Below, piece by piece: positions 1 to 14,547 of a stretch of DNA of 52,407 bases; the first letter of the stretch is position 1; every line of letters starts with the position of its first letter. The notes under the pieces were generated by a model that had not been told where the DNA came from, made no database searches, and was given only the letters and a program-made list of their open reading frames with translations. The DNA is from a virus. The position numbers and the translations under genes were made by a program. The DNA is taken from the UHGV virus genome UHGV-0113213; one strand, 5' to 3'.

Positions 1-544
1 TATCCAGCGAATCATTAAAGGGTATCCACACATCCGGCAGCGGCTGTAAAACATACGCGTAAGGCTGCGCCGTCTGATTGGCGTATTCGTGGGCTTCGTC
101 TCTGTATGTCTTAGCTGAATCGGCTGCGCTTGTCGCTGTTGTTGCAGCGTTGGTTGCAGTGGTAGCTGATTGTGATGCTAATTTTGAGGCTGAAATCACA
201 TCTTTGTTGTCGCTAAAAAATTCAACTGCGTCCGCTATTTCTGATTCTTTGCCCTGATAGTAACGCAGTGTTTCGGCTACATCCTGAGCAAGACCATCCA
301 CAGAGATCGAATCTGAAAGCAGGATACTAAATTTAGTTCCAGCCGGAATAGCAGGACTTGCCGCAGGTGTTACTGATAAACTTGTTGCGCTTTTTACCTC
401 TGTGATTGAGAAAATCTGCACCGGATTGCTAATGGCAATAAGGGTGCAACCAACCCTGATCAGAGATAATGCGGCATTGAATTCAGTCCCCGTTCCGGTA
501 ACTGTTTTTCCGCTAACGGCTATCGTGCCTGTTGTGTAAATCAT
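1..544 (-). CDS. tail fibre protein, N-terminal part (ORF runs off the left edge)
   Basis: Own translation from ATG at 544: MIYTTGTIAVSGKTVTGTGTEFNAALSLIRVGC... It stays open to position 2. GGAG SD lies 8 nt upstream. Ala/Thr/Ser-rich shaft-like stretch (SQSATTATNAATTATSAADSAK). Next gene after J. Absent from the ORF track because it is truncated. Confidence 0.6.
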   Translation of the reverse strand, partial: MIYTTGTIAVSGKTVTGTGTEFNAALSLIRVGCTLIAISNPVQIFSITEVKSATSLSVTPAASPAIPAGTKFSILLSDSISVDGLAQDVAETLRYYQGKESEIADAVEFFSDNKDVISASKLASQSATTATNAATTATSAADSAKTYRDEAHEYANQTAQPYAYVLQPLPDVWIPFNDSLD

Positions 545-582
545 CGCAATGACTCCATTATGTTAATTAACCTGGTAATTTT

Positions 583-625
583 ACCATTTTGTGATCTGTG
601 TTACATTTCTGGCTTATACAAAATG
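583..625. promoter_or_regulatory. divergent intergenic control region: phage motif pair flanking a CRP-like palindrome
   Basis: CCATTTTGTGATC (583-595), TGTGATCTGTGTTACA (589-604, 12/16 to the CRP core) and TTATACAAAATGT (613-625). Lies between the tail fibre start (544, -) and the lipoprotein gene (722, +). Confidence 0.5.
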
Positions 626-721
626 TATTTATTGATTTATATCAATATCCGAAATGTTGTTTTGTCGGATATTTAAGCCACCGGATGAACCTGGCGAGCT
701 AACGAGAATGGGGATTCAAAA

Positions 722-970
722 ATGAAAAACATGCTCAAAGTGGTATTATTCGCTGCGGCTGTTGCTCTTACTGGTTGTGCTGTTGACAAAGATGCTGCAT
801 TGCACAACCTGCCAAATAGCGGAGTAATTCCTCAAGAAATTGTCTATGATGCTAATGGTCATCTTGTCTATGACACTGAAAAACTTCCATATACTGGTCA
901 ATGGTGTCATGAACTAGATCACAATATGCGCCGCATCGGTAGCCCGTCGAATTGTGTAGCTAACTACTAA
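722..970 (+). CDS. small lipoprotein (moron) between J and the tail fibre
   Basis: 82 aa. Signal peptide plus lipobox: MKNMLKVVLFAAAVALTG|C. Opposite strand to the tail genes, with its own terminator. Confidence 0.8.
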   Translation: MKNMLKVVLFAAAVALTGCAVDKDAALHNLPNSGVIPQEIVYDANGHLVYDTEKLPYTGQWCHELDHNMRRIGSPSNCVANY

Positions 971-973
971 AAG

Positions 974-1003
974 AAAACCCCGCGCAAAGCGGGGTTATTT
1001 TTA
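974..1003. terminator. bidirectional rho-independent terminator
   Basis: Stem CCCCGC(978-983)/GCGGGG(989-994), loop GCAAA. T-run follows on the plus strand (TTATTTTTA) and on the minus strand (TTTTCTTTT). Sits between convergent genes. Confidence 0.75.
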
Positions 1004-4000
1004 TGACCACGATCCAGAGCTTCTTGTGACAAGGACTAGGCCTGGTCTCCTTATTGCCGCTGATGATGTATTTGTGTAGTTTTCTGTAACAGTTACGGAA
1101 ACATGCTGAGATGTAATACCTGAAACACAATGAACGGCAACGTCTGACTTGTGGGGCGTTGATGCCGCCCTTTCTATGTCTATAGTCTTTGAATTTCCGT
1201 TAATGTTTATGGTTACGTTAATGCGTCCCGACTGGTTATATGTATAGTAAGCAAGGTTATAAGGTATCATTACATAAACCGTTTTCGATAAAGCAGATGA
1301 TGATGAATCCCAATAATTTTTGGTTACACTCCTGCTACCTGACCCTGATTGCGCAGGGAATGTTGCCTCTGGAATTACTGACATACTCGCAACGTCACCA
1401 ACAAAGGATGTAGCTTCTACAGTGCCTCTGAATTTACCGTCAGTCGCGTAAACAGTACCGTTAAACACACCAGAATTAGCGTATACCGTGCCGCGTACTG
1501 TAACGTTGTTAAATGTAGCCCAGCCATCTTTAACTATTGCCCAACCTTGATCGCTACCGTTCCAATTGTATGACGTTATGACATTGCCTATTTTTGCATT
1601 GTCGATTGAACCGTCTTTAATAAACGCTTCGCGCACATACATTGCGCCGTTAGTGACATAGAAAGGTGTCTGATATGTGCCGTTTGCGGCAGTCATTAAC
1701 ACGAATCGGTCAACAAGGAAAATGCACTGCGATTGAACATCAGTACCGCTGCCAGTGAGGCCAAGTGACATTCCTGTTGCGTATTTCATACCGTTGTTAT
1801 CAGTGGCAATCTTGATTGAATATGACGCATCAACGTTACCTTTAAAATCGGTTAACGCTTTCGATGTTGTCTCGATCGCTGTTGTGTTTCCGTTAACGGT
1901 CACTTTCAATTGATCAATTTTTGTCGATAATGCCTCATCTGCCGTTGACATGGCCTGCGACCATTCCGTGATGCTTGAGTTTACATCGTCGAAAGATGCC
2001 GATATTTGAACAAATTTTTCAGCACTTGATGCCTCGTGAGTTGCGAGCGCCGTTGATATATCTGTTATTTTTGCTGAAATGTTTTCATTAATATTGGCTT
2101 CAAGTGATGCTATAGCCTCCGCGCGGGCCTGTGTTTCGTCTGCTATTGCTGTGTCAATCCTTGCTATTTCCGCTTTTGTTTTTATCTGGCCTTTCCTGTA
2201 TTTTGCCTCAATAACGGTGCTCATCTTGCTTTGCGCTATTGAGTTGTTGATAAGTGCAATCGAGGCGTTTTGCAGACTTGCTTTCGCCTGTTCTATCTTG
2301 TCACTGTTTTTATCAACATCACTTTCAACAGAACCAAGCTCCGCACTGATGCCTGATATTGCCTGGGCGCGAGCGCTTGATTCGTCGGCGATAGCTTGAT
2401 CAAGGCGGCTAACACTGGCATTTGTGCTATTTTCAAGCGTTGTTAAATCAGCTTTAACATCTGTTATTGCGTCGCTTCTTGCCTGCGTTTCATCTGATAT
2501 TGCTTTATCGAGACGAGAAACGCTCGCGTCAGTTTTGTTTTCCAGGCTGCTGATACTGGCGTTAACGTTGCTTATAGCCTCCGTTCTAGCCTGCGTTTCG
2601 GTTGCGATTGCTTTGTCAACGCGGGCGATTTCCCCTTTGGTGCTGGAGTCCATTGCGTTCATTTCTGCTGTGATGGTTTCCAGTGATTCCGCTGTCGCTT
2701 TTTTCTCATCTGCGATAACGTTGTCGATACGGTCAATCTGTGCCTTTGTTTCGTTGCGACCTTTCTTATATTGAGCGGTAAGAGTAACCCGCGTGTTAGT
2801 TTGAGCAAGCGAGTTGTTGATCAGAGCAAGCGAAGCGTTTTGTAAACTTGCTTTTGTCTGTGCCAGTTCGTTATTAACGTTTTCGTTTGATACCTCTAAT
2901 GAGTCTATTCTTACCTCATGTTTGCCTATTCCATCGGCGTTTTCTTCGACTTTTTTATAAAGGTCTTCGGTGTCTTTTTTAAGTGTATCTGTATCAGCTT
3001 TAAGGCCATCTGTAGCTGTTTTAAGGTCGGCGGTTGCTGTTTTAAGGTCGGCGGTTGCGCTTTCTATAATATCAGTGCGATCACCAAGATCCTTAATATC
3101 ACTTACCAATTCCTTAAATTGCTCTGAGTTCATCACGTCTTTGGTGACATAGTCGCTGATTTCATCGAAGTTTTCAGTTGGCTTACCTGACGCCTCAACG
3201 AAGTCTGACACGCCAAAGGCATTGCGCGTGCGCACATAAACGTAATAAGTATGGCCCGTGTTCATTCCACCGAACGTCCACTGATACCCGCGCCCGGTAA
3301 ACTGCGCAGACGTGGTTATTTTTGCAGGATCTGTAATCTGGTTTTTCCCTGCATAGTAGAACTCATACGCTGTATCAGTTGTTAGCGTTGTTTTGCTTAT
3401 CGGGTACACTGTAGCCTGAAATACACCTGGAACCCAGTTAACGCCTATTGGCGAGGCTGGTGCACCAATAACAAGATCAACAATACTTTCAGCGCCCTTC
3501 ATGCCAGTATCATTTCTTCCGCGAACGCCTAACGAATACGCGCCAGCGTCGATGCCATAAAAATCATAACTGTATTTCGTTGTTTCGTAGCTTTTAACAA
3601 CCGCACCATCTGTGTTATATATGCGGATCTCAAAGGTCATGCGATGTGTTGTTGTCTGTGTCTCCCATGTTGCGCGGCATTGAACCGTTTCAGATCCAAT
3701 GTTTACCACCTTCAGATTTTCAATGCTCGGCACGCGGAAGTGATTAAGCGTGTCGTTGTTGATTTCAAATATAGCGCCTTCATCGACTACTGCTTGTTTG
3801 TTCGGGTCATGTTGCGCTGCTTCGATGGTGTACACGCTGTTGTTTTCAGTTTCTGCTACGCTGATGATTCGACATAAAACGGGTTTTGCAGATTCGGTTG
3901 ATACAGCAAAAACAGTACCGTTCCGAATCCATGCCGGGGCTGCTGCCAGTGTGATTTTGTTCCCGTTAACACCAGTGATCTGATGTTTTTTAAATTTGCC

Positions 4001-5578
4001 ATCGCCATCAAGTAAACTGATGGTGTCGCCTGCTGCAATGTATTCTGAATCGACTTTATCGACCGTTATCACTTTCCCATTGTTCGCCACGATACGACCG
4101 CCTAAACGCGCGCCTGCGCGGTTATTGTCGAGGATCTCGATTATATCCCCTGGCGTAAAGTGAATCGCATCACGGGCCATTTTAAACGTGAATTTTGACG
4201 GCTCGCGTTTTGCTGTTTCTATCAGCCATTTACCAGCGCGGTGCGCTTGCCCGCGTGAAGTGCACCCGAACGCCTCCAACGTGGTTTCGTTATAACCATC
4301 ACGGGCGATTAGCTCATCATCTGCCACATACTCTTTTGATTGCTCCCAGCCGTTTTCCGGGTCAGTCCATGATACAATCACGGCGTTGTAGCATTCTGCT
4401 CGGGCGATACTTGAACGAGTGAACGCACCATCAACGACGTTTGCGTTTGTGATGGTGGCGATCGGGTCTTGTGGCGCATCAATCATCACGGTAAGGCGTT
4501 GTCCGTCCCATAACGCGATGCCTCGGAACATCCCGGCGATATTGTCCAGTAAATCGCGGGCGCTCATTTGCTCTGTAATGTAAGCATTAAGCGTCATGCG
4601 AGGCTCAAGGCCACCGTAACCATCATCAACCAACTGGTCGCAGTATCGGGAGAGCGTATATAATGCGCCGTCGTCAACGTCAATATAGCCAGCATGGCGG
4701 GCAAGACCGAAACGCTCGTTTTTAACCAGGTAACGGAAGATCCACGCGGGGTTATTGGTGTACGCCTTCTTGAAGCCGCCAAGCCACAAACCGGAATAAG
4801 TGCGCGTTTCCGGGCTATAGTTATCAGGAACGTCAACAATCAGCCCGCGCAGGTGATAAGTGCGGGTAGGTGTATCAGTGTACTGATCATGATCAATAAC
4901 CGCGCCAGCTACAGCTGTGTGGGGATATGACAAATTATCGTCGATTATTTCGCTGTAACTACTCCATCTCGTATCATTCTGCAATAGATCGCTTGTGCTA
5001 TCGGCCGTTACACGGCGAACGCGAATATCAAACGGCTTTTCATCTGGTGCATTGATAATATGCGCTTCAAGATATTCTCCTCTGATCTTGCCGGGGCCTA
5101 TAGTGACATCTTTAACAAGCGTCCACGTAGAAGAAGATGAAGGCTTGACATCAATCATCATCATAACCGATGTGTTATGTTGATTGCTTTGCTCGTCAGA
5201 TTGTACAAGTGAATCGACGCCGATATTCAGGCGAACGCGCGTAACGTTAGGATCTGATACAGTCCTGATTATTGGGGTATCGTGTTTCACCTGAGCGTTA
5301 ACAATAACGGTTGATTCAATGGCGTTAAAACCGTTAATAGGTGATTGATCTAACGTGCCGTTACGCCACGCCACGCTAACACCAGGGACACTTGTATTGC
5401 CGTTCGCGTCTGTAACAGGTGTATCATTAAGCATCACGCTATTTAATGGCGCTTTTGTATTTACAGGTCCATAAATCGGACCTTCAGAAATAATATCAAG
5501 TACACGATAAAATTGTTTATGGTATAGATTATCGTTAATTAAAGTCGGTGTTTTTGCTTTACCGCCGCCGCTACTCAT
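1001..5578 (-). CDS. J: central tail fibre / host specificity protein J, with a long coiled-coil C-terminal extension
   Basis: 1525 aa. The N-terminus aligns by eye with lambda J (KDNL..Q...V.D.ISEGPI.GPV......V.LN.TPV.D..GNT). FN3-like segment, then about 400 aa of heptad-like repeats and a beta-rich tip. Position after I. Confidence 0.9.
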   Translation of the reverse strand: MSSGGGKAKTPTLINDNLYHKQFYRVLDIISEGPIYGPVNTKAPLNSVMLNDTPVTDANGNTSVPGVSVAWRNGTLDQSPINGFNAIESTVIVNAQVKHDTPIIRTVSDPNVTRVRLNIGVDSLVQSDEQSNQHNTSVMMMIDVKPSSSSTWTLVKDVTIGPGKIRGEYLEAHIINAPDEKPFDIRVRRVTADSTSDLLQNDTRWSSYSEIIDDNLSYPHTAVAGAVIDHDQYTDTPTRTYHLRGLIVDVPDNYSPETRTYSGLWLGGFKKAYTNNPAWIFRYLVKNERFGLARHAGYIDVDDGALYTLSRYCDQLVDDGYGGLEPRMTLNAYITEQMSARDLLDNIAGMFRGIALWDGQRLTVMIDAPQDPIATITNANVVDGAFTRSSIARAECYNAVIVSWTDPENGWEQSKEYVADDELIARDGYNETTLEAFGCTSRGQAHRAGKWLIETAKREPSKFTFKMARDAIHFTPGDIIEILDNNRAGARLGGRIVANNGKVITVDKVDSEYIAAGDTISLLDGDGKFKKHQITGVNGNKITLAAAPAWIRNGTVFAVSTESAKPVLCRIISVAETENNSVYTIEAAQHDPNKQAVVDEGAIFEINNDTLNHFRVPSIENLKVVNIGSETVQCRATWETQTTTHRMTFEIRIYNTDGAVVKSYETTKYSYDFYGIDAGAYSLGVRGRNDTGMKGAESIVDLVIGAPASPIGVNWVPGVFQATVYPISKTTLTTDTAYEFYYAGKNQITDPAKITTSAQFTGRGYQWTFGGMNTGHTYYVYVRTRNAFGVSDFVEASGKPTENFDEISDYVTKDVMNSEQFKELVSDIKDLGDRTDIIESATADLKTATADLKTATDGLKADTDTLKKDTEDLYKKVEENADGIGKHEVRIDSLEVSNENVNNELAQTKASLQNASLALINNSLAQTNTRVTLTAQYKKGRNETKAQIDRIDNVIADEKKATAESLETITAEMNAMDSSTKGEIARVDKAIATETQARTEAISNVNASISSLENKTDASVSRLDKAISDETQARSDAITDVKADLTTLENSTNASVSRLDQAIADESSARAQAISGISAELGSVESDVDKNSDKIEQAKASLQNASIALINNSIAQSKMSTVIEAKYRKGQIKTKAEIARIDTAIADETQARAEAIASLEANINENISAKITDISTALATHEASSAEKFVQISASFDDVNSSITEWSQAMSTADEALSTKIDQLKVTVNGNTTAIETTSKALTDFKGNVDASYSIKIATDNNGMKYATGMSLGLTGSGTDVQSQCIFLVDRFVLMTAANGTYQTPFYVTNGAMYVREAFIKDGSIDNAKIGNVITSYNWNGSDQGWAIVKDGWATFNNVTVRGTVYANSGVFNGTVYATDGKFRGTVEATSFVGDVASMSVIPEATFPAQSGSGSRSVTKNYWDSSSSALSKTVYVMIPYNLAYYTYNQSGRINVTININGNSKTIDIERAASTPHKSDVAVHCVSGITSQHVSVTVTENYTNTSSAAIRRPGLVLVTRSSGSWS

Positions 5579-5592
5579 GGTTAATTCTCCTG

Positions 5593-6123
5593 TTAACTTA
5601 CAACGTCTAAGGCGTCTTTATTGTTTGTTGTGTCTATGCCTAACGATCCGACGTTTGAACCTACTTTCATTTCTCCTAATAGGATTGGCACTGGTCTACC
5701 CTGTCCTACCCTGTTTTCTATGCTGGTGTAAGTGTTATTAGTTATGGTGTTATCCTGCGCGCTTTCTGATGATGTTTTTACCTTCATGTTGCGAGACATA
5801 AAAATAGAAAAAGCGACGCTGACAACTGATATACCAATCATAATCCAGCCAATCACACCAATACCTGCAATACCACCTTCAACTATTGGCGCAATAATTA
5901 CCGTAGTTCCATCTGGATATTTGCTATTAACAGCCGCTGGCGCGGTCTTTTCGTTGTAATCTTTCCCGGCAATTCGTAAGCGCAAAGGTGTATTTAAAAA
6001 CGCCTTTTTAAATTCCTGATTCTGCGCGGTCAATAAGCGAAGCCCTTGCGCTGGCGTTTCAACGTTTAAACACACTTTGCTGTAATATCTTCGAAGATTG
6101 CCCGTAAATCTAAATTTGAGCAT
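5593..6123 (-). CDS. I: tail assembly protein I
   Basis: 176 aa. Lambda I-like: central Gly/Ile-rich hydrophobic segment and C-terminal VPILLGEMKVGSNV (lambda: VLPVLYGEMRVGSRV). Position K-I-J. Confidence 0.8.
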   Translation of the reverse strand: MLKFRFTGNLRRYYSKVCLNVETPAQGLRLLTAQNQEFKKAFLNTPLRLRIAGKDYNEKTAPAAVNSKYPDGTTVIIAPIVEGGIAGIGVIGWIMIGISVVSVAFSIFMSRNMKVKTSSESAQDNTITNNTYTSIENRVGQGRPVPILLGEMKVGSNVGSLGIDTTNNKDALDVVS

Positions 6124-6797
6124 TTATCAGATCTCCATATTGAATGCGTTTGTCGAACATAAGCAGGCCGCATTTGCTCGCGGCGGCTTAATAATCCGGC
6201 ATGGTCATGATGCAAAACCGTGTTATCACCCAGGTAAATCATTGCGTGACACGGGTCAGCGCCTTTGAATGGCTGGCGAATGATCACATCACCAGGCTGT
6301 ATGCTTTGCGCATCAACCTGATAAAACCCGTTCAATGGCAGGTTTTTTAAATACAGGTTTTCACCGCGAAGCCACCAGCCATCAAGGCGCTCGAAGTCAG
6401 GCAGATCTACACCGCAAAGGTGATATGCGTCGCGGAAAAGCGCGTAACAGTCTGTCGTTCCGTGTACGAATTTACGGCCTAGCAGGTGCGCAACCGGACG
6501 GAATTTCCTGATCTTGCCGCCGGAATATAAAAACCAGGGTAGCCCGGAAATAACCTGTTGCTGTCGATCCCGCGCTGACAATACAGGAATATCACCAACG
6601 TGGGAGTGGAAAACGGCGGTTATAACGCCCAATTCGTCCGCCTTGATGTAATCGTCCGGCGAAATCTTGAAGCTGTTGTAAGGCGTTTCAGACACGTTAG
6701 CGCACGGGTAAAAATACTCGTTATCTATTACAAGTCCGCAAACTTCCTCAAACGGATGCGCGGCGGCATAACGCGACATTTTGTCTTCCATCCCCAT
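6066..6797 (-). CDS. K: tail tip assembly protein K (MPN/JAMM + NlpC/P60)
   Basis: Strong recalled similarity to lambda K (HSH.G, DLPW, TDCY.LFRDAYHL.G..MPDF, QPGDV, HHA.IY.GD). The likely start is the ATG at 6797, 2 nt after the L stop. The track ORF extends to 6872. Confidence 0.88.
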   Translation of the reverse strand: MGMEDKMSRYAAAHPFEEVCGLVIDNEYFYPCANVSETPYNSFKISPDDYIKADELGVITAVFHSHVGDIPVLSARDRQQQVISGLPWFLYSGGKIRKFRPVAHLLGRKFVHGTTDCYALFRDAYHLCGVDLPDFERLDGWWLRGENLYLKNLPLNGFYQVDAQSIQPGDVIIRQPFKGADPCHAMIYLGDNTVLHHDHAGLLSRREQMRPAYVRQTHSIWRSDKCSNLDLRAIFEDITAKCV

Positions 6798-6799
6798 GA

Positions 6800-7504
6800 T
6801 TAACCTACCTTGCTGGAACCAGGGAAACAGGAGATCGGCAGTGCTGCCGGACGCGGGAAACGCAAACGGCAACCGCTAAGGCGGTGGCTGCATTTGTCTA
6901 ACGTTGGGTCACTTGTTGGTGTATCTTTATCAGTTGCGACCGGGCCGCCAGAATACATGCACCCGTCGCCTCTGTATTGCCACTGACAAACGTCAGCAAG
7001 GATGGTGCGCCCTGGGATAACGGCTTTATCTGCATCAATTGGCGTTGACAATTCATATTGCACCTGATCCGCTGTTTCTTCGCTCATTGCTTCAACGACG
7101 TAAAAAGATACAGCCTCAATAGATGGATCTGCGTCTGGATTGCCGTTAGGGAAGTTAACGGCGTCCAGGTATTTAACCTCCACCTGGCGGCGCGTAACCT
7201 TCATGCCTCTTAGGTCGTTGAAATCGTTATTCATCCCCGTAATGAGTCCGCCGATGTTGGCTACAACCATTTGAGGGCGCGAATAAACGCCTTCGTTTTT
7301 CATTTCGAAGCCAGTAGCCTCGATCGGGTAGCTGTTGTAAGCCACACCCTTCCAGATAACCGGGCCGTAATAGCCATTCGCGCCGGAATGGAAGCGGATA
7401 ACCTCGCCACCCAGGGGCGTGAGGTCTAATTCAAACAAGTCAATTACCGCGCCGACTCCGGCATCGACGGAATCAATAATCATTTCTCTCGGAATATTGC
7501 GCAT
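6800..7504 (-). CDS. L: minor tail protein L
   Basis: 234 aa. Lambda L-like: FLDAVNF.NGN..ADP, GR.ILA..C.W.YRGD.C.YSG, cysteine cluster CSH.LSGC. Confidence 0.9.
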   Translation of the reverse strand: MRNIPREMIIDSVDAGVGAVIDLFELDLTPLGGEVIRFHSGANGYYGPVIWKGVAYNSYPIEATGFEMKNEGVYSRPQMVVANIGGLITGMNNDFNDLRGMKVTRRQVEVKYLDAVNFPNGNPDADPSIEAVSFYVVEAMSEETADQVQYELSTPIDADKAVIPGRTILADVCQWQYRGDGCMYSGGPVATDKDTPTSDPTLDKCSHRLSGCRLRFPRPAALPISCFPGSSKVG

Positions 7505-7522
7505 TTTCTCACCTTGTCATTC

Positions 7523-7587
7523 TGTGATCTGCGTCACGCTAAATCATACCAAAATGGATTGATCGCGGTTTTTACAATATGTATATT
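7523..7587 (+). promoter_or_regulatory. sigma70-type promoter for the plus-strand cassette, with an upstream CRP-like palindrome
   Basis: TGTGATCTGCGTCACG (7523-7538); TACCAAAATGG motif variant (7547-7557); -35 TTGATC (7559-7564), 17-nt spacer, -10 TATATT (7582-7587). On the minus strand the same region reads TGGTATGAT (extended -10) facing L. Confidence 0.6.
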
Positions 7588-7633
7588 TTACTCAAACGGA
7601 AGCATAGTTAACAAAATGGCGCGGAGGTGCGTT

Positions 7634-7822
7634 ATGACTGAAAAGCTATGGAAGTTGACGGTATTCATGACAGACGGTAGGGAAAAGGTTATCGCCCTGT
7701 ATGACGACGAGGGTGAAGCATTGGTTGACGCGCTTTTACTTGCTGAGGATGACCGCCTTTTGGGATACCAGATCGAACCTGTCAAATATGAGGCTAACAA
7801 AAATGAAAAAATACAGTCTTGA
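7634..7822 (+). CDS. hypothetical small protein (paralog of the next ORF)
   Basis: 62 aa from the ATG at 7634, with GGAGG 6 nt upstream. Shares W/Y.L.V....G......L.D.E..AL...........PVKY.AN with 7803..8150. Confidence 0.6.
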   Translation: MTEKLWKLTVFMTDGREKVIALYDDEGEALVDALLLAEDDRLLGYQIEPVKYEANKNEKIQS

Positions 7823-8150
7823 TGTGTGGTTAAGTGGTAGCAAGGAGTGTTTCGGATTATTTGATAGCGAAGAAGTAGCCCTGGAAGAAGGCAGGATTCT
7901 TGAATGTAGTTTAGGCCATCCAGTGAAATATGCTGCTAATCCGGTACAGATAGTTGATGAGGTGGAAGATATGAACCCGAAAGATATTAATGGTAGCTTC
8001 ACTGCTTATTATGCAGATTCTATGGACCAGTCTTGCCCTGGTGAAATACACGCAAAAGGTTTCCCGGCTGACGATCCAGAAGCAAAACGCGAATACGAAA
8101 AAGCGGCGAAAGATTTCTGTATCGATAACCTTTCAGCATTCGATAAATAA
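7803..8150 (+). CDS. hypothetical protein (paralog of 7634..7822, with a C-terminal extension)
   Basis: 115 aa from the internal ATG at 7803 of track ORF 7701..8150. The start overlaps the previous ORF's end. Acidic. Confidence 0.6.
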   Translation: MKKYSLDVWLSGSKECFGLFDSEEVALEEGRILECSLGHPVKYAANPVQIVDEVEDMNPKDINGSFTAYYADSMDQSCPGEIHAKGFPADDPEAKREYEKAAKDFCIDNLSAFDK

Positions 8151-8159
8151 GGCGGCAAC

Positions 8160-8408
8160 ATGGGGCGGCGCAATCACGGTGATTATGTGTACACGTTGAA
8201 ACAGGCCGCCCGCCTCATCGGTTATCATGAACACGAATTTATTGATTTGCTGATTGAGCGCGGGATACTGTACCAGGTCTGTTTAACGCTGTACCCGAAA
8301 GCGAAATACCTACATGAAAAGTTATTCATCATCATGACGGATGAAAACCAGGTTAACCATTCATTCGTCACTGATAAGGGCGTTAATTATCTGCGTGATA
8401 ACTTATAG
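8160..8408 (+). CDS. KilAC-domain-only protein (antirepressor C-terminal domain-like)
   Basis: 82 aa. YTLKQAARLIG..EHEFIDLLIERGILY....LYPKAKYLHEKLF......VT.KGVNYL matches my recollection of the KilA-C pattern. No Bro-N/ANT/KilA-N domain is attached. Confidence 0.55.
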   Translation: MGRRNHGDYVYTLKQAARLIGYHEHEFIDLLIERGILYQVCLTLYPKAKYLHEKLFIIMTDENQVNHSFVTDKGVNYLRDNL

Positions 8409-8530
8409 GTGACTGATTATAAAAATAAAAGTTTTGGCGCTAATAATAATGGGGTTGATAGTATTTGGCGTTCATGCTGTAGATCTGGACTGGAAAACGA
8501 TAGCAGAAAATATAGCATTAATGGAAATAG

Positions 8531-8560
8531 AATAAAAATAACCCCGCTTCGCGCGGGGTC
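8531..8560 (-). terminator. rho-independent terminator after the small gene downstream of M
   Basis: Stem ACCCCGC(8541-8547)/GCGGGGT(8553-8559), followed on the minus strand by TATTTTTATT. Confidence 0.7.
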
Positions 8561-8564
8561 GTGT

Positions 8565-8762
8565 TTATACGCCATCAACCAAAAATAAAACCTCCTTCCC
8601 TTCCCGGGATCTACACCCAACGTACCCATCACCAACGTCGTGAAGATACCATATATCGCCGTTGTCAGCTTTTACAGTAAGGTCGTTGATCTCATAGTCG
8701 TCAAACAATGTAAAAGCGTAAGTTTTGTCAACTACACAAGTCCCGTACATAACAACCCCCAT
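8565..8762 (-). CDS. small protein, dispersed member of the D-x-x-G-x-x-W family
   Basis: 65 aa. Start overlaps the M stop (TAATG). ...C........F.....Y.I..L.VKADNGDIWYLHD resembles the four tandem genes at 28676-29581. Confidence 0.6.
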   Translation of the reverse strand: MGVVMYGTCVVDKTYAFTLFDDYEINDLTVKADNGDIWYLHDVGDGYVGCRSREGKEVLFLVDGV

Positions 8763-9115
8763 TAGCCAACAACTTGCTCAAACGTTGCGTTTAGCGTGTA
8801 CAAAGGCCCGTCTTTAGTCATACTCCATTGCCGACAGACAAAAAGCCTTTGCACGTTATCCATTGACGGCGACCAGTAAAAAGCCTCGACCGCGCCGCGC
8901 GCCCTCAAGAATGCTTCCGCCTGGATTGCTACGTTTCCACCATCACCACATCCGGCGCTACTGCCTTTAAACACCAGGGTGTAGCTATCAAGCAATGGAT
9001 TGATACCTTTTACCTGTCTTTGCTCATAACCATCGCCCAGCTTAACAACAGATACGTCTGGCTTCCTGGTCACGCTGTAGCTTCTTTGCGGCGTCCATCT
9101 GAACACTTCCGGCAT
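8762..9115 (-). CDS. M: minor tail protein M
   Basis: 117 aa. Lambda M-like: FRW.P.........V..V.LGDGY.QR, C-terminal FEQVV. Confidence 0.85.
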   Translation of the reverse strand: MPEVFRWTPQRSYSVTRKPDVSVVKLGDGYEQRQVKGINPLLDSYTLVFKGSSAGCGDGGNVAIQAEAFLRARGAVEAFYWSPSMDNVQRLFVCRQWSMTKDGPLYTLNATFEQVVG

Positions 9116-9147
9116 AAAACCCCCACAAGTTACATTTTGTATATATC

Positions 9148-9174
9148 TTTACGCGCTTCTACGCGAAAAATAAG
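9148..9174. repeat. conserved 27-nt hairpin element, copy 1 (copy 2 at 21418-21443)
   Basis: TTTACGCGCTTCTACGCGAAAAATAAG versus TTTACGCGTTGCTACGCGAAAAATAGA (23/27 identical). Can fold as TTT.CGCG-loop6-CGCG.AAA. Lies upstream of M on the minus strand. Confidence 0.6.
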
Positions 9175-9175
9175 A

Positions 9176-9192
9176 TCATTGTCACAATGATT
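9176..9192. promoter_or_regulatory. perfect 17-bp palindrome (candidate operator)
   Basis: ATCATTGTCACAATGAT has 8-bp arms around one central base. It sits immediately downstream of a minus-strand TATAAT (9190-9195). Confidence 0.35.
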
Positions 9193-9199
9193 ATAGCTA

Positions 9200-9242
9200 G
9201 TTTACAAAATGGCTTCACATAGCACGCAACAAGATGTATATA
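9200..9242 (+). promoter_or_regulatory. sigma70-type promoter of the 9283-9710 cassette
   Basis: GTTTACAAAATGG motif (9200-9212) abuts -35 TTCACA (9214-9219); 17-nt spacer; -10 TATATA (9237-9242). Confidence 0.6.
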
Positions 9243-9282
9243 GAAAGCAAGAAGAAAGTAGTACCAACGAAGGAGGCCCAAA

Positions 9283-9438
9283 ATGAAACGCTATGTAGTA
9301 GTAATGCTAAATAACGCATTCGAACAAGTGGAAATAGCAATCGTTAAGGGTTTCGACGACGCATTCAAATACGGTCAATTCATGATGAATGCGAAAGAAG
9401 ATGAATACCGGGACTTCTTCCTGAAGGCACTTAACTAA
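9283..9438 (+). CDS. hypothetical small protein
   Basis: 51 aa (below the track cutoff): MKRYVVVMLNNAFEQVEIAIVKGFDDAFKYGQFMMNAKEDEYRDFFLKALN. Strong SD AAGGAGG 7 nt upstream. Confidence 0.6.
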   Translation: MKRYVVVMLNNAFEQVEIAIVKGFDDAFKYGQFMMNAKEDEYRDFFLKALN

Positions 9439-9455
9439 GGATGATGGGGTGAGTT

Positions 9456-9710
9456 ATGAAACTGGTAGCGATTGACAGAAATCTGAAAGCACAGAAAAAC
9501 GCACAGGACCGGATCATCAAGAAAGGTAAGGAATTACTTAAAGCCTTTCTGAGAAAAGAAGTTTACCCCAAAAAGTTACGCGACGGTTACGGATACAAAA
9601 TGGATATCAATCTTGATTGGAGGCTGTTTAGCGAAGATTTGAAGGTTTGGTTAATTGTTGAGCACCGTGCCTATAACAAGTTATGTGGCGTGAAAGGCAC
9701 TCATAAGTGA
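9456..9710 (+). CDS. hypothetical basic protein
   Basis: 84 aa, Lys-rich. GGGGTGAG SD. Second gene of the cassette inserted between H and M. Confidence 0.6.
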   Translation: MKLVAIDRNLKAQKNAQDRIIKKGKELLKAFLRKEVYPKKLRDGYGYKMDINLDWRLFSEDLKVWLIVEHRAYNKLCGVKGTHK

Positions 9711-9765
9711 GTCGAGATATTCGAAAGGGGATATATCGCGCGGAATGGTCGTTTATAAATACGAA

Positions 9766-9800
9766 AAATAACCCCGGCATTGCACCGGGGTTTAGTTTAT
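9766..9800. terminator. bidirectional rho-independent terminator
   Basis: CCCCGG(9772-9777)...CCGGGG(9785-9790), flanked by AAAAATAA on the left and TTTAGTTTATTT on the right. Lies between the cassette end and the tape measure stop. Confidence 0.7.
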
Positions 9801-12139
9801 TTGCGGCGAGGTTGCAACATTCCGCCTGGTCTTTGAGATTCCCTTGTTATCATTTTCATGGCTACACGTTCCATTGTTAATTCAAGTCTGCGGCTGTCTT
9901 CGTCGCTGAATCCGTTCGTGGTCTGAATGCTGATACTGACAGGCATACTAATACCGCCACCGCCGCCAATATCACGGCCCGGAATAACTCTGCCGTTCTC
10001 GCCAGGGATCATATATTGATTGCCGTTAGATGTCTGGAATAGCTCCGGCCTGTTGTGTTCCCCTACGCGGTACATATTACCACCAATGACGCTACCACCA
10101 TTAAAGCGACCGCCGCCGAAAATTGACGTAGCCAGCGACATGATCGCAGTGAGCGCCGCCGAACCAGCCGCCGCCCAGCTACCGCCAGTTGACGCCGCAG
10201 TTGCCGCCGCTGCTGGGGCCGCCGCCGCAGCAATGCTTCCCTGAGCTGCTACCGCGCTTGCTGTTGTACTTGTTTGCGTGGCCTTGCTTTGTGTCTCCAT
10301 CATGATCTGATCTGCTATCCAGTTTGCAGCTATGTCTGAGAGTCTGTTACCGATATTGCCGAGTATATTGCTTCCTAAGTTAGCAAAAACATCACTCAAT
10401 GATTGAGTGCCGTTTAACAGGCCAACAAGCGCATTACTCATTCCGCCTTTAAGGCCATTAACACAATCACCGATAAGGCCGTTTGTGTCGCTTTGCGCCT
10501 GCCATTGTTCCCATTTCAGATCGCGGATCTGTTGCTCATAGGCTAACAATTCCTGTTTCTGTTGCGCTTCAGTAGCGCCCAGGTCTATAAGCATTTGCTT
10601 ACGGATGGCCCATTCATTTTGCGCCTGCTGGATGGGGTCAACTTCGCCTTTTAGCTGATCCATCGGGCTTACTATTTGTGACCATTTATCACGCAATTCA
10701 TCTACCGGAATTTGTGCTAATTCTTCTTTCAGTTCCTTGCCGATCCCTTTTTGCGCGGCGCGGTACTCAAGGAGCGTGATTTTACCCTGGGCAAATGCAG
10801 CATCAATGGCCTTGCCGTTCTCCAACGCTTTGCGCATGGCGGCGGCGTCTTTGTTGTACTGATCAGAAACGCTTATACCTTTGTCACCAAGCCGATCAGC
10901 TTCCGATTTCTTCTCTTTTTTCTGTTTTTTCGGCTTGTCTACTGGCTTGTCGAATCCGGTAATCGCTCCGTCATTGGCAGCATTCTGTTCATTTTTCCTT
11001 GCTTCTTCTGTAGCCTGGATTGCTGCGGTCAGATCATCCTGTAGTTGCATGACCTTGCCAACGGTCTTCCCGTATTTCTTCTCGTAGTTGCTGTTATATT
11101 CGTCGGTTTGCTCTCCTACTACCTCCTTCATCCATTTATAGCCATCCATTAGCGCCTTGATTGGCGTCACCATTGCGATGATCTTCTCTGCCACCTCTCC
11201 AGCCTTAACAGCCACATCATCAAACATGTCGATAAATTCGCTACCAGCCGTTTTGAGTGTGTCGAAGCAGGTTTTAGCGAATTTAGCGCCATCGCCAAGC
11301 CCTTTAACGCCTTTCGTGATCAAGTCGATAGCTGAAACAACGCCATCTGACACGCCAAAAAGATCATCCAACTGCTCAACAAGGCCCATAATTTCTACTT
11401 TAAGCTCATTGATAGCCATGCCGGATGTGCGCGGCAACTGAGCAAACTTATCGTTTGTTTCCTGCGTAGCCGCCTGTATTGCGTTAACCATCCTTTCAGC
11501 CGTGATCTTGCCGTCCAGCATTTCGGCGCGGAACTGGCCCATTGATAATCCCATATGGCGGGCCATTGTTTGTACGATGGTCGGCGTATTTTCAAGCAGG
11601 CTGTTAAATTCTTCGGCACGAAGAACACCGCCGTCGATAGACTGACGGAATTGACGCATTGAGTTAGACATCTGTTCCGCTGACGCGCCGCCTAATGCAC
11701 CCATTTTCTGAATAGTGCCAACCAGGTTAAGCAATTGCCCTTCCGTAGCGGAGGTGTTTTTTAGTGAGATAGCCAGGCCTTGCCATAATTCGCCAGTATC
11801 TTTCAGGCTCTGCCCCGTCTCCCTGGATATTGCTTTCAGGCCGTCGAAAACCCGTCCGGCGGACTCCGCATCGCCCGTAAGCATTTTGATTTTTACGCGA
11901 AGCATTTTTGCTTGCTCCGCCATATCCATAAATTGGCGCACAGCCTCCGCAGCAATTAGCAGATGGATAACCCTGGTCAGTGCCTTGATGGATGTTTTCA
12001 GGGTGTTTACCTGGCGGTCAGCCTGTTTTGCGCCGCGCTCTATACGATCAAAGGCCTGGTCTGCCTGTCGTTGTGCAACGAGAAGTTGACCAGTTTTCGC
12101 ATCAACTTCGTAATAAATTGTACCTACACTGGTAGCCAT
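9797..12139 (-). CDS. H: tail tape measure protein
   Basis: 780 aa. Long alpha-helical, Ala/Gln/Gly-rich, with a Gly/Ala-rich hydrophobic segment near the C-terminus. Position between the chaperone and M. Confidence 0.9.
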   Translation of the reverse strand: MATSVGTIYYEVDAKTGQLLVAQRQADQAFDRIERGAKQADRQVNTLKTSIKALTRVIHLLIAAEAVRQFMDMAEQAKMLRVKIKMLTGDAESAGRVFDGLKAISRETGQSLKDTGELWQGLAISLKNTSATEGQLLNLVGTIQKMGALGGASAEQMSNSMRQFRQSIDGGVLRAEEFNSLLENTPTIVQTMARHMGLSMGQFRAEMLDGKITAERMVNAIQAATQETNDKFAQLPRTSGMAINELKVEIMGLVEQLDDLFGVSDGVVSAIDLITKGVKGLGDGAKFAKTCFDTLKTAGSEFIDMFDDVAVKAGEVAEKIIAMVTPIKALMDGYKWMKEVVGEQTDEYNSNYEKKYGKTVGKVMQLQDDLTAAIQATEEARKNEQNAANDGAITGFDKPVDKPKKQKKEKKSEADRLGDKGISVSDQYNKDAAAMRKALENGKAIDAAFAQGKITLLEYRAAQKGIGKELKEELAQIPVDELRDKWSQIVSPMDQLKGEVDPIQQAQNEWAIRKQMLIDLGATEAQQKQELLAYEQQIRDLKWEQWQAQSDTNGLIGDCVNGLKGGMSNALVGLLNGTQSLSDVFANLGSNILGNIGNRLSDIAANWIADQIMMETQSKATQTSTTASAVAAQGSIAAAAAPAAAATAASTGGSWAAAGSAALTAIMSLATSIFGGGRFNGGSVIGGNMYRVGEHNRPELFQTSNGNQYMIPGENGRVIPGRDIGGGGGISMPVSISIQTTNGFSDEDSRRLELTMERVAMKMITRESQRPGGMLQPRRK

Positions 12140-12159
12140 GATTTAACCTCATGCAAAAA

Positions 12160-12221
12160 TGTGATCTGTGTATCTATTTTATACAAAATGGCTTTACTTC
12201 AACGACTCCATTTTGTATAAG
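12160..12221. promoter_or_regulatory. back-to-back divergent promoters built on a perfect 13-bp inverted repeat
   Basis: TGTGATCTGTGT (12160-12171). TTATACAAAATGG (12179-12191), 16-nt spacer, CCATTTTGTATAA (12208-12220). Plus strand: -35 TTTACT (12193-12198), 17 nt, -10 TATAAG (12216-12221). Minus strand: -10 TATAAA (12178-12183) facing H. Confidence 0.6.
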
Positions 12222-12266
12222 GAAGCTAAAGGGAATGGTCAGTAAATCAAGTTAGCGTGGTGGGTT

Positions 12267-12926
12267 ATGAAACGGTTAGCAAAAGTGGCAATGATTGCGG
12301 CGGTATTGGGTCTGGTTGGTTGCAATGAGGATAATGAAAAAGCGCCTATAGTGACCAATCAAGAGCAACAAGCATTAGTAGAGAAAAATGCTAAATGGCT
12401 TGCAGAACAACAAGCAAAACAAGCCGCATACGATGCACAGTTAGAAAAAGAAAATGCTGGTAAACAGTGGCTTGTAGTTGAAAGAAAAGATGATATGCAG
12501 GACGCAAAAAACGTATTCCTTTTTGTGAAAGCAGAACAATTCAGCGGAAGTCTTGATGCTTTCCCGACACTGAAGGCACAGGATAAGAATAAACCGGTAT
12601 TAACAATCGCTTGCCAGGGTAATAAAACAAAAATGTTCGTAGCATGGTCACACCATGTAACTGACGCCGGGGACACTACTTATATTAACTACCGGATCGG
12701 CGTTCACAAAGCTGTAGCTACTGAGTGGTGGCGGTCAACTAATTATAAAGCTCTTGGATTATGGGACGGCAAAAAAGCCATCCCAATGATTAAAAAACTG
12801 GTTAACGAAAAACAATTCATCATTGAAGTAGTGCCGGAAGCTGGCGACATTGAGAAAGCAGTGTTTAACATTGATGGTCTTTATAACCACATCGACAAAG
12901 TGAAAAACGCTTGCAACTGGAATTAA
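12267..12926 (+). CDS. lipoprotein (moron)
   Basis: 219 aa. MKRLAKVAMIAAVLGLVG|C lipobox. Gln/Ala/Lys-rich linker followed by a globular domain. Confidence 0.8.
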   Translation: MKRLAKVAMIAAVLGLVGCNEDNEKAPIVTNQEQQALVEKNAKWLAEQQAKQAAYDAQLEKENAGKQWLVVERKDDMQDAKNVFLFVKAEQFSGSLDAFPTLKAQDKNKPVLTIACQGNKTKMFVAWSHHVTDAGDTTYINYRIGVHKAVATEWWRSTNYKALGLWDGKKAIPMIKKLVNEKQFIIEVVPEAGDIEKAVFNIDGLYNHIDKVKNACNWN

Positions 12927-12936
12927 GGGGTAAATC

Positions 12937-13311
12937 ATGAAAAAAATAATCAAAGCGGTTCTCATTGGTGTTATGGCTTTAGCTCTTACAGGGTGCGCAA
13001 GATCAACTGATTTCGTTAAGTTAGCTGATAAAAATTTGCAAGTTGGAATGACTTGTGAGCAAGTGAATAAAATAATGGGGGAACCACAAAGAATCGAGCA
13101 TGACGGTAATTATAGTTATCACGTATGGTATTCAGTAACCAGCACGATAGGATTTACTTACATGGATGTTGAAGAATTATCCCCTTCAAGGGTTATCGCA
13201 AAGTTTGATAACTGCATCCTAAAAGAATGGAAAGATCGCAGTAAGGCAAAGTCTGTATACAATACAATCACACACAGTTCACCAGGTACAGCAATTAAAG
13301 ATTTCAATTAG
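12937..13311 (+). CDS. lipoprotein with a BamE/SmpA-OmlA-like fold signature
   Basis: 124 aa. MKKIIKAVLIGVMALALTG|C lipobox. LQVGMTCEQVNKIMGEPQ resembles the BamE-type motif (recalled). Confidence 0.7.
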   Translation: MKKIIKAVLIGVMALALTGCARSTDFVKLADKNLQVGMTCEQVNKIMGEPQRIEHDGNYSYHVWYSVTSTIGFTYMDVEELSPSRVIAKFDNCILKEWKDRSKAKSVYNTITHSSPGTAIKDFN

Positions 13312-14011
13312 CAAAACGCCCGGATCTACCGGGCTTTTCTTGCTCACGATTTTTCATTCTTTCTAGTGCCTTTTTAGCGGCCTCCATTTGCTCGTCATAA
13401 GCACGTTTATTTATGTGAATGTTTGGCTTGCTTTTCTCGTTTCTTTCGTCTGGCGGCGTTTTAGCGCGTACAGCGGCCCTATATCCGGTCATTGTCATAT
13501 TCCATGCTTCCGATTCTGACAAGCCCAGGTGAGCAACGGCAGAATAGACGAATTCAAGGACGTTAAAAGTCGGCTTATATTCCCCTTCCGGGATTTCCCC
13601 GGACTCTTCTTCCGGGCCATCACCAATAAGACCGTGGTACATGCAGTGCTGCGCAAGCGTGATGATATCCTCGATCGGCATTAATCCGGGCTTTAACTTT
13701 AACTTACCCGAAGGAGTAAACCAGCATTCGCCCAATAACGGGCCTATTTCGTCGTCTGAGCAACATTTCAGGATGTGCATTGATGTCTGAACTATTTCAC
13801 CATAACACCGCGCCAGAATGCGATTGCGTAGGTCTGGATCTGCTGGCAATCGTGATGGATATTTGCCGCCGTGGATAAGTGCGAAATATTCGACAAGCTC
13901 ACTATCGTTGCCGATTTTAGCCATCGCAGCAAAGCAAGGATTAAACTCATAGCGCTTACCGTTCACCACGGCAGCAAATTGTCCTGTACGAACATGGATC
14001 ATAGTATTCAC
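13304..14011 (-). CDS. tail assembly chaperone (G/GT-equivalent position)
   Basis: 235 aa, located between the tail tube and tape measure genes. Acidic middle, basic C-terminus. A single continuous ORF; I could not find a convincing slippery site. Confidence 0.5.
   Translation of the reverse strand: MNTMIHVRTGQFAAVVNGKRYEFNPCFAAMAKIGNDSELVEYFALIHGGKYPSRLPADPDLRNRILARCYGEIVQTSMHILKCCSDDEIGPLLGECWFTPSGKLKLKPGLMPIEDIITLAQHCMYHGLIGDGPEEESGEIPEGEYKPTFNVLEFVYSAVAHLGLSESEAWNMTMTGYRAAVRAKTPPDERNEKSKPNIHINKRAYDEQMEAAKKALERMKNREQEKPGRSGRFAN
13315..13342 (+). terminator. rho-independent terminator of the lipoprotein cassette
   Basis: GCCCGG(13318-13323) ATCTA CCGGGC(13329-13334) followed by TTTTCTTG. 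Embedded in the 3' end of the convergent minus-strand ORF. Confidence 0.7.
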
Positions 14012-14013
14012 CT

Positions 14014-14040: not shown

Positions 14041-14057
14041 ATTGTTAATATTGGCTG

Positions 14058-14534: not shown

Positions 14535-14547
14535 GTTTAGTTACCTC

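Follow-up and report, generated by a model that had tools for sequence, protein, structure and literature searches.

Morons of lambdoid phages (Juhala et al. 2000; Cumby et al. 2012) are promoter-gene-terminator units of deviant guanine-cytosine (GC) content that lie between genes adjacent in relatives (reviewed in PMC3594210). The first moron to be named, gp15 of HK97, is located between the tail chaperone and tape measure genes and encodes an inner-membrane exclusion protein (PMC3594210). Elements on the strand opposite to a late operon have also been described. The phi80 tai gene, a moron on the opposite strand, splits the Q late operon; lysogens contained the Tai protein, and its level dropped upon Q expression (PMC11364771). 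In Pseudomonas phage JBD26, the defence gene tab has a promoter of its own and is encoded on the minus strand within the late operon, and anti-Tab, its small counter-defence partner on the late strand, overlaps the end of the late gene before it (PMC10884400). The mEpimmI phages, a siphoviral and Nus-dependent group that is non-lambdoid by immunity, are prevalent in human faeces and are reportedly as common as lambdoid phages among human faecal isolates (PMC11893012). We analyzed the UHGV virus genome UHGV-0113213 (52,407 nucleotides; this whole stretch is called the window below), in which the minus-strand tail genes of such a phage are interrupted at four junctions by plus-strand gene cassettes.

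Alignment to mEp021 identified the window as essentially the whole genome of a temperate mEp021-like (mEpimmI) phage of Escherichia coli, with its late genes on the minus strand. The first 14 kb are 82-88% identical to the Escherichia phages MagusPhagus, mEp010, mEp013, mEp021, mEp044, mEp515, and mEp554, and a related tail region was found in 397 of 5426 complete E. coli genomes. We consider it probable that the four units are prophage-expressed accessory cassettes held in fixed tail slots and crossed by Q-antiterminated late transcription.

The cassettes are morons in anatomy, and one of them is a known exclusion gene, so that the finding extends known moron biology and reveals no new kind of system. 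Similar to lambdoid morons, they lie as units of candidate promoter, genes, and terminator between genes that are adjacent in relatives and deviate in GC content. What is unusual compared to those morons is their number in one tail module, their uniformly opposite orientation, the fixed and conserved frames in which the candidate promoters sit (with the terminator also fixed at three slots), and the near-core status of two of them as stable genes of the clade. The phi80 tai/ati element shares the arrangement of an opposite-strand, prophage-type gene flanked by Q-controlled late operon genes, but it is a single element upstream of the packaging genes, whereas four lie within the tail genes here; there is no sequence relation, and the comparison concerns the genes alone. 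The paper describing the mEpimmI group (PMC11893012) does not describe the three cassettes other than that of the exclusion gene or the four-slot layout, and its text uses neither 'moron' nor 'opposite'. The layout is already visible in the public annotations of mEpimmI phages.

Layout of the tail module

The tail genes, the cassettes, and the late regulator gene are listed in the order of late transcription for the tail, with sizes in amino acids (aa) and open reading frames abbreviated as ORFs.

14058-14534, minus strand: tail tube gene (Pfam)
13304-14011, minus strand: DUF6246 protein in the G/T (tail assembly chaperone) position (PF19759, E = 2.2e-54)
12267-12926 and 12937-13311, plus strand: H/DUF6246 cassette, two ORFs
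9797-12139, minus strand: tape measure protein H (PF20155, TMP_3, E = 1.1e-49)
9283-9438 and 9456-9710, plus strand: M/H cassette, two ORFs
8762-9115, minus strand: minor tail protein M (PF05939, Phage_min_tail, E = 1.2e-27)
8565-8762, minus strand: 65-aa late-strand ORF (mEp021 gp70 homologue, phrog_3249)
7634-7822, 7803-8150, and 8160-8408, plus strand: L/M cassette, three ORFs
6800-7504, minus strand: L (Phage_tail_L, Pfam)
6066-6872, minus strand: K (NlpC/P60, Pfam)
5593-6123, minus strand: I, in the tail block L-K-I-J
1001-5578, minus strand: J, in the tail block L-K-I-J
722-970, plus strand: Lpp cassette at the J/fibre junction, one ORF
1-543, minus strand, running off the window: N-terminal part of the tail fibre or tail tip gene, homologous to the MagusPhagus, mEp021, and mEp010 fibre genes
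32694-33422, minus strand, upstream on the late strand: Q-type late antiterminator gene (PF03589, E = 1.7e-31)

In this gene map the plus-strand genes are flanked on both sides by co-oriented, consecutive tail genes, which is the gene order of a noncontiguous operon. The cassettes that an earlier note on this DNA had read at four tail junctions were all found at the positions given there, with nine ORFs, and the L/M interval also holds the tail-strand 65-aa ORF (8565-8762) that was absent from that note. The lower GC content claimed for the cassettes was recovered by GC profiling, with 39.3-42.4% at the junctions and 40.9% in the pooled cargo compared to 47.5% in the pooled tail genes, and the sign of the GC skew switches exactly over the cassettes. 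All nine plus-strand ORFs match PHROG families (E = 1e-21 to 1e-80), and Pfam matches were obtained for four of the nine (KilAC, ParE_like, VasI, and, weakly, DUF7738). The cassette ORFs are under purifying selection, with ratios of nonsynonymous to synonymous divergence (dN/dS) of 0.03-0.32, compared to 0.05-0.06 for M and L. Judged by these sequence signatures, the plus-strand ORFs are real genes and not antisense accidents. The Q-type gene aligns with mEp021_37, which is annotated 'late gene regulator Q'.

Occupancy of the junctions among relatives

Relatives were sampled around homologues of M, giving 80 IMG/VR loci (the best 80 of 593 confirmed relatives, from the first 600 pattern matches) and 43 genome loci, and the tail genes were placed in each. 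Junction ORFs in the relatives were called in a strand-aware manner and checked by dN/dS. Close relatives are the 34 sequences whose M is 82-100% identical to that of the window. A distant clade, with M 59-70% identical, covers Enterobacter, Franconibacter, Phytobacter, Atlantibacter, Citrobacter, Pectobacterium, Erwinia, Pantoea, and Yersinia, and the lambda-type prophages have an M of 37% identity. Individual loci are given L numbers, with L002 being mEp021. Occupancy among the 34 close relatives was as follows.

DUF6246/H junction: 30 of 30
H/M junction: 34 of 34
M/L junction: 31 of 32
J/fibre junction: 25 of 28

These four junctions hold 0.45-2.1 kb in the close relatives. The density of four morons in one tail module, which the earlier note had called unusual, stands as such, but it is not an oddity of this genome, since the layout is the conserved architecture of the whole mEpimmI clade. 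The L-K-I-J spacings (-73, -58, and about +13 nt) are invariant in approximately 110 loci, barring rare inserts between I and J. A same-strand insert of 571 nt at the I-J junction of mEp021 (L002 8132-8698) is annotated as an HNH endonuclease, and three distant loci (L051, L055, and L069) carry a 682-698 nt insert between I and J.

The polarity of the insertions was read from loci in which the genes are joined. In the distant clade, approximately 25 loci have coupled H and M genes (-1 to +11 nt), and 16 of 74 have coupled M and L genes (-4 to 36 nt), with 0.3-1.3 kb between M and L in the remainder; in the lambda-type prophages M and L are adjacent. The coupling of H-M and M-L in the distant clade and lambda-type loci indicates that the cassettes were inserted into an ancestrally coupled block, in line with the earlier claim that they interrupt genes contiguous in lambda-type order. 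Empty spacings were also recorded, with 62-113 nt at J/fibre in L041, L073, L013, and L033 and 4 nt at DUF6246/H in L081. The distant-clade H/M junction (loci L035-L106) contains a same-strand ORF of 70-73 aa (cluster d1) in approximately 25 loci and opposite-strand ORFs of 75-132 aa in other loci, so this junction takes cargo in either orientation. The M/L junction is, from the same comparison of loci, an insertion site shared across Enterobacterales genera.

Cargo turnover and exchange

A conserved core with no cargo turnover among related phages had been named earlier as a refuting result, and the outcome was split. Turnover was found at DUF6246/H and J/fibre, but not at the other two junctions, where the H/M pair (34/34) and the M/L trio (31/32) are near-core. 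At DUF6246/H seven unrelated gene families alternate, with the lipoprotein pair of the window replaced by six others, and in six of the seven families the N-terminus carries a Sec signal, a lipobox, or membrane helices. HK97 gp15, an envelope exclusion protein, occupies this same chaperone/tape-measure junction, which fits the bias of the DUF6246/H cargo, nearly all of it envelope-directed, although gp15 has no sequence similarity to the cargo here. The J/fibre junction carries one of four families of small lipoproteins or secreted proteins, in some loci together with a DUF6453 protein, and is empty in three loci.

The H/M junction contains the ParE-like gene in 34 of 34 relatives and its 51-aa neighbour in 32 of 34, and the M/L junction contains the KilAC-like gene and its 115-aa neighbour in 31 of 32. 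Both vary only by extra genes, located between the last conserved gene and the terminator or between the conserved genes. Synonymous divergence (dS) is approximately 1.0-1.5 for the H/M pair, 0.7-0.9 for M and L, and about 0.2 for the M/L trio. Because the dS of the H/M pair is as deep as that of M and L, this pair is an old resident.

Exchange points were located by comparison with relatives that carry other cargo. At DUF6246/H, the stretch without homology extends from 12232-12238 to the terminator, where homology returns at 13313-13315 (in one of six comparisons, at 13329); L004 has a replacement of the second gene only. The break at J/fibre falls at approximately 630-656, and the replaced block includes the 3' end of J, which is consistent with the C-terminal type of J tracking the cargo family, as it was found to do among the relatives. 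The scaffold with the candidate promoters is kept on one side at both junctions, and the terminator is kept on the other side at DUF6246/H.

It was noted that the signal-peptide-coding 5' ends (12256-12309) of otherwise unrelated DUF6246/H cargo are 78-88% identical in DNA (versus L002, L015, and L025), which points to recombination in the signal-peptide region or to repeated use of a single leader sequence. A linkage between the cargo and the tape measure was considered and rejected, as the tape-measure type does not follow the DUF6246/H cargo and family c42 occurs with an H that is 83-100% identical to that of the window. In one relative (L007, IMGVR_UViG_3300045988_076424), a clean deletion between short TTGTTA repeats lies at 10354-10480, corresponding to 7618-8748 of the window. 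The deletion takes out the whole M/L cassette along with the 65-aa ORF and the terminator but spares the control region, and the 65-aa ORF and the cassette are therefore dispensable together.

Control regions, shared motifs, and terminators

A divergent control region lies between each cassette and the tail gene beside it. Arrows mark features read on the minus strand.

544-721, fibre/Lpp: CRP-like palindrome at 590-605, TACAAAATGT at 617-626, TTGATTTATATCAA at 632-645, and minus-strand TGGTAAAAT at 586->578
7505-7633, L/cassette: palindrome TGTGATCTGCGTCACG at 7523-7538 and minus-strand TGGTATGAT at 7551->7543; candidate promoters TTGATC-17-TATATT on the plus strand at 7559-7587 and TTGTTA-18-TAAAAT on the minus strand at 7614->7585
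9116-9282, M/cassette: CATTTTGTA at 9132-9141, TACAAAATGG at 9203-9212, palindrome ATCATTGTCACAATGAT at approximately 9175-9191, and minus-strand TATAAT at 9195->9190
12140-12266, H/cassette: TGTGATCTGTGTATCT at 12160-12175 and an inverted TACAAAATGG pair at 12182-12191 and 12208-12217

The minus-strand -10-like elements reported earlier before H (TATAAAAT), M (TATAAT), and L (TGGTATGAT) are readable in these regions, and TGGTAAAAT likewise precedes the fibre gene. In the H region the inverted TACAAAATGG pair carries back-to-back -10-like elements, TATAAAAT on the minus strand (12183->12176) and TATAAG on the plus strand. By a weighted hexamer score, candidate promoters on both strands of every control region fall in the 99.9-100th percentile of the window. 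The earlier claim of a sigma70 promoter with the phage motif for each cassette is supported in part, by the motif and by the hexamer-score candidates, but not by a simple consensus scan, in which the L/M region alone was picked out.

Conservation of the control regions is strong and does not depend on the cargo downstream. The fibre/Lpp region is conserved in relatives with three different cargo genes, the core of the H region is 100% conserved in 24 unique relatives with homology ending at 12238 irrespective of the cargo, and L007 retains the L control region despite its deleted cassette. The candidate promoters therefore belong to a conserved phage scaffold that stays put at a cargo swap and is not imported with the cargo. 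The cassettes would be expressed in lysogeny from these own promoters, active in the prophage.

Two motifs recur in the control regions. The 'phage motif' of the earlier note is real: TACAAAATGG or its complement CCATTTTGTA, with at most one mismatch, was counted 26 times compared to 5.8 +/- 2.5 expected, occurs in all four control regions, and is mostly intergenic, often as inverted pairs. TGTGATCTGNGT has exact matches only at 590, 7523, and 12160. A CRP-consensus-like palindrome (TGTGA-N6-TCACA, at most one mismatch) was found at nine sites compared to 1.4 +/- 1.1 expected, of which eight are intergenic and one, at 28659-28674, matches the CRP-consensus core perfectly. Within the control regions the match to the CRP core is nine of ten bases at 590-605 and 7523-7538 and seven of ten at 12160-12175, with none at M/H. 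The palindrome lies at about -60 to -64 of two plus-strand candidate promoters and overlaps the start site of minus-strand candidates. Its half-sites are conserved and its spacer varies in 21-27 unique relatives, a signature of a dimeric DNA-binding protein, and mEp021 has seven sites at homologous places. The palindrome is absent from the M/L control regions of 44 occupied distant-clade loci, which hold one unrelated site type only (background 14 sites per 1.03 Mb); it is therefore clade-specific, which weakens the reading of a generic CRP site.

A perfect FNR-consensus, TTGATTTATATCAA, is present at 632-645 upstream of the Lpp gene, and its TTGAT-N4-(A/G)TCAA half-sites are kept in relatives with three different cargo genes. 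This conserved FNR-like site hints at anaerobic control of the exclusion lipoprotein. A composite element, consisting of an inverted TACAAAATGG-type pair and the TGTGA-N6-TCACA palindrome, recurs at 28618-28674, 34882-34956, 38285-38341, 39933-39948, and 43184-43241, and most copies contain a GATC (Dam) site. The palindrome was also considered as an operator for the CI-like repressor, but it could not be assigned to it, as the immunity region (43140-43440) shows no clear repeated copies.

Terminators were scanned for and counted against shuffled sequence, giving 31 terminator-like sites compared to 14.8 +/- 4.1 in the shuffles, with the top-ranked sites at the 3' ends of the cassettes. The best of them were called on both strands, with folding energies of -14 to -19 kcal/mol in either direction.

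976-996, both strands: bidirectional intrinsic terminator between Lpp and J (-17.4 and -14.5 kcal/mol)
8540-8560, both strands: bidirectional terminator between the L/M cassette and the 65-aa ORF (scan and folding)
9770-9792, both strands: bidirectional terminator between the M/H cassette and H (scan and folding)
13318-13334, both strands: bidirectional terminator within the last codons of the DUF6246 gene (scan and folding)
14024-14039, both strands: terminator after the tail tube gene (scan and folding)

Terminators are annotated independently at the same places in the GenBank records of mEp021 and mEp010. A strong hairpin with T-runs, called on both strands, follows each cassette, as had been read earlier, and with five strong intrinsic terminators on the minus strand from the tail tube to the fibre gene, late transcription would indeed have to cross convergent units and terminators. 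Three of the four cassette terminators (976-996, 8540-8560, and 9770-9792) share a near-identical stem, AACCCCG(C/G)...(C/G)CGGGGTT, to which the J terminators of L013 and L033 are similar; the near-identical stems suggest common descent or gene conversion of terminator modules. An Rfam scan of 1-14600 returned no known RNA.

Cargo genes

The gene at 722-970 encodes an 82-aa type-C Lpp lipoprotein (lipobox LTGC; phrog_12984, 'lipoprotein'; dN/dS 0.09). It is 91% identical (75 of 82 residues) to gp116 of mEp010 (Lpp010), with which it shares the lipobox and the position between J and the tail tip gene, and no substantive difference was found. The exclusion lipoprotein Lpp021 (PMC11893012) is of type A, and the product has no similarity to it. 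Plasmid-expressed Lpp010 excluded mEp010, mEp044, mEp554, and lambda, all LamB users (PMC11893012). From this homology, the gene at 722-970 is predicted to be a superinfection-exclusion lipoprotein gene. Receptor-blocking lipoprotein genes also lie beside the receptor-binding gene in T5 (Llp, beside pb5) and in phi80, N15, and HK022 (Cor). The shared feature is a small lipoprotein gene beside the receptor-binding end of the tail, and here it is Lpp that covaries with the receptor-binding type; the sequences of Llp and Cor are unrelated to Lpp.

For the eight genes other than Lpp, functions can be suggested from domain matches and gene arrangement. The H/DUF6246 cassette encodes a 219-aa VasI/TagO-like lipoprotein (lipobox LVGC, phrog_1848) and a 124-aa lipoprotein (lipobox LTGC, phrog_18614). 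The former matches PF11319 (E = 1e-15) and bears the RefSeq name 'TagO'; NCBIfam matches for it and the others were only sub-threshold (VasI at 47 bits versus a cutoff of 124, and lipoprotein signal regions). Of the 5426 E. coli genomes, only 15 carry this cassette, in every case within this prophage context.

The M/H cassette comprises a 51-aa ORF (9283-9438, phrog_29810, dN/dS 0.03) followed after 17 nt by an 84-aa ParE-like protein (9456-9710, dN/dS 0.09). The latter matches PF24732 (ParE_like) with 44 bits versus a cutoff of 24.4 (E = 2.2e-11) and is named 'ParE family toxin-like protein' in RefSeq. Its homologues are confined to the mEp021-like clade (69-98% identity), so the alignment is shallow, and the AlphaFold2 model built from it has a mean predicted local distance difference test score (pLDDT) of 62.9, with a beta-alpha-beta-beta-beta order compatible with the RelE/ParE fold. 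No sequence match was found in the PDB, and a Foldseek search of the PDB with this low-pLDDT model gave nothing below E = 2 (cutoff E <= 0.001). The 51-aa partner matched no Pfam, NCBIfam, or PADLOC family and so no known antitoxin family. By their geometry, the two are a candidate toxin-antitoxin pair.

The L/M cassette encodes proteins of 62 aa (phrog_29559), about 115 aa (phrog_38567), and 82 aa (KilAC domain, PF03374), with dN/dS of 0.16-0.32, and the KilAC domain is the only functional hint in the three. The 65-aa ORF overlaps the M stop codon on the late strand and converges on this cassette across the terminator (dN/dS 0.08), which makes it a candidate late-expressed partner of the cassette. 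In the distant clade, the M/L slot nearly always contains a small late-strand ORF 10-26 nt after M together with at least one opposite-strand gene. The late-strand ORF belongs to several families, one with a conserved N-terminus MTLEQRV.ALE and a variable tail, and the opposite-strand genes belong to more than 15 families, including aspartyl-protease-like, DUF6602, and DUF1883 proteins. The succession of M and the 65-aa ORF, a terminator, and a convergent cassette, with many unrelated pairs in the distant clade, has the same geometry as JBD26 tab/anti-tab. The JBD26 pair is dispensable as a pair, and L007 lacks both the 65-aa ORF and the cassette, a joint loss that fits the tab/anti-tab model. 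The JBD26 genes differ in lying at a junction between terminase genes, and the likeness to the M/L slot is one of geometry alone, with no PADLOC match.

Transcription model and alternative explanations

The slots share one build: the conserved divergent control region directly adjoins the 5' end of the following tail gene, the cargo of one to three genes runs counter to the late genes, and a bidirectional terminator adjoins the end of the preceding tail gene. We propose that the late operon is silent in the lysogen, where transcription of the cassettes would start at promoters of their own and would end at the two-way terminators, which would also insulate them. Their products would mostly act at the envelope, with three lipoproteins including an Lpp that would block LamB-dependent phages, and would further include the ParE-like/51-aa pair and three small cytoplasmic proteins. 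Upon induction, Q-modified RNA polymerase would read the minus strand through all five terminators and antisense across the cassettes, so that the tail genes would be expressed as one interrupted ('noncontiguous') operon and the cassettes probably damped; the internal -10-like elements may add to tail-gene expression. Cargo would be exchanged by recombination between the conserved promoter scaffold on one side and, on the other, the terminator or, for Lpp, the receptor-binding end of J.

Several observations weigh against this model. The near-core H/M and M/L genes, with an H/M pair that is old, resemble integral phage functions over optional host-benefit cargo. The J/fibre junction of mEp021 has a cassette-strand gene, gp80 (L002 1980-2915, DUF6453), whose product is annotated as a structural protein of the virion by mass spectrometry, which indicates that at least one opposite-strand gene is made in lytic growth; the DUF6453 protein, of 311-320 aa, also occurs at the J/fibre junction of L032. 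The simple sigma-70 consensus scan was not enriched overall (16 sites versus 26.1 expected), and no cargo protein matched a PADLOC defence model. Expression of the cassettes in lysogeny is deduced from sequence for every member of the group, and the phage-wide motifs in the control regions could mean phage-programmed, possibly lytic-phase, expression.

An alternative explanation is that the cassettes are phage-programmed genes under a shared phage or host regulator acting through the palindrome and TACAAAATGG, used mainly in the lytic or early phase for assembly, takeover, or counter-defence, with the divergent scaffolds as switches that coordinate each cassette with the adjacent tail gene. 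The genome-wide enrichment of the motifs with eight of nine palindromes intergenic, the conserved half-sites around a variable spacer, the clade specificity of a motif missing from distant-clade junctions, the near-core status of H/M and M/L with a deep dS for the H/M pair, and the virion protein gp80 all speak for it. Nevertheless we find it unlikely, as the tested exclusion role of Lpp is sensible only if the lysogen produces the protein (PMC11893012), the three lipoproteins and the toxin-like pair are what prophages typically carry, and terminators on both sides insulate the cassettes from the phage operons; turnover at two slots argues against an essential phage role, and L007 lost the whole M/L cassette.

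A still less probable explanation divides the tail module into separate units (H; M with the 65-aa ORF; L-K-I-J; and the fibre gene), each with its own minus-strand promoter and fully working terminators, in which case no Q read-through would be needed. H, M, L, and the fibre gene are indeed preceded, at a distance of 40-110 nt, by strong and conserved -10-like or extended -10 elements (99.98-99.997th percentile), a strong hairpin with a T-run ends every late-strand block, and the empty J/fibre junctions of L013 and L033 keep the terminator and the fibre-proximal upstream region. Constitutive sigma-70 promoters would, however, make tail proteins in lysogens unless repressed, a repression that the palindrome, which covers about +1 to +16 relative to the H and L candidates, might provide. 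A Q-type antiterminator is moreover encoded in the genome and is the annotated late regulator in mEp021, and in lambda-like phages Q-modified polymerase ignores intrinsic terminators of this kind. The two routes are compatible. That the plus-strand ORFs are chance antisense frames in spacers, encoding nothing, has next to no probability left, despite several ORFs being short (51-84 aa) and most being without known function. This explanation is already refuted by the selection and homology data, namely the dN/dS values, a PHROG match for every ORF, and four Pfam matches, to which the flips in GC skew, readable ribosome-binding sites and lipoboxes, and the tested homologue of Lpp (PMC11893012) can be added.

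Under our preferred model of prophage-expressed cassettes, fixed slots with a conserved promoter scaffold, and with a fixed terminator at three of them, offer a simple rule for finding prophage cargo, which would include exclusion, toxin-like, and possibly defence genes. The conserved flanks offer ready homology for recombinational swapping of the cargo, and the link between the exclusion lipoprotein and the receptor-binding end of J would explain how immunity to the phage's own receptor type moves with host range. A more speculative proposal, which we regard as doubtful, is that the four control regions, instead of being independent moron promoters, form a coordinated switch through an operator made of the clade-specific palindrome and CCATTTTGTA, and that the M/L slot is dedicated, across Enterobacterales siphophages, to convergent defence/counter-defence pairs of the Tab/anti-Tab type. 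The operator, present also at approximately six other intergenic sites, could be bound by host CRP, by FNR (at Lpp), or by a phage protein, and the bound operator would set the direction in which a region fires, to the cassette or to the tail gene; the 65-aa ORF on the late strand would serve as an antidote to the L/M cassette. If such a shared operator exists, host physiology would act jointly on many accessory genes of a prophage that is common in the gut.

Plus-strand ORFs outside the tail module

The remaining plus-strand ORFs of the late and early regions were compared with PHROG, and none matched except the ORF at 31682-31999 (phrog_20945), so there are otherwise no family-supported cassettes outside the tail module. 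This is the only other family-supported plus-strand ORF inside minus-strand operons. It lies downstream of Q and before the lysis genes, and begins right at a TGTGATAGTTTTCACT palindrome, and it may represent a fifth opposite-strand unit.

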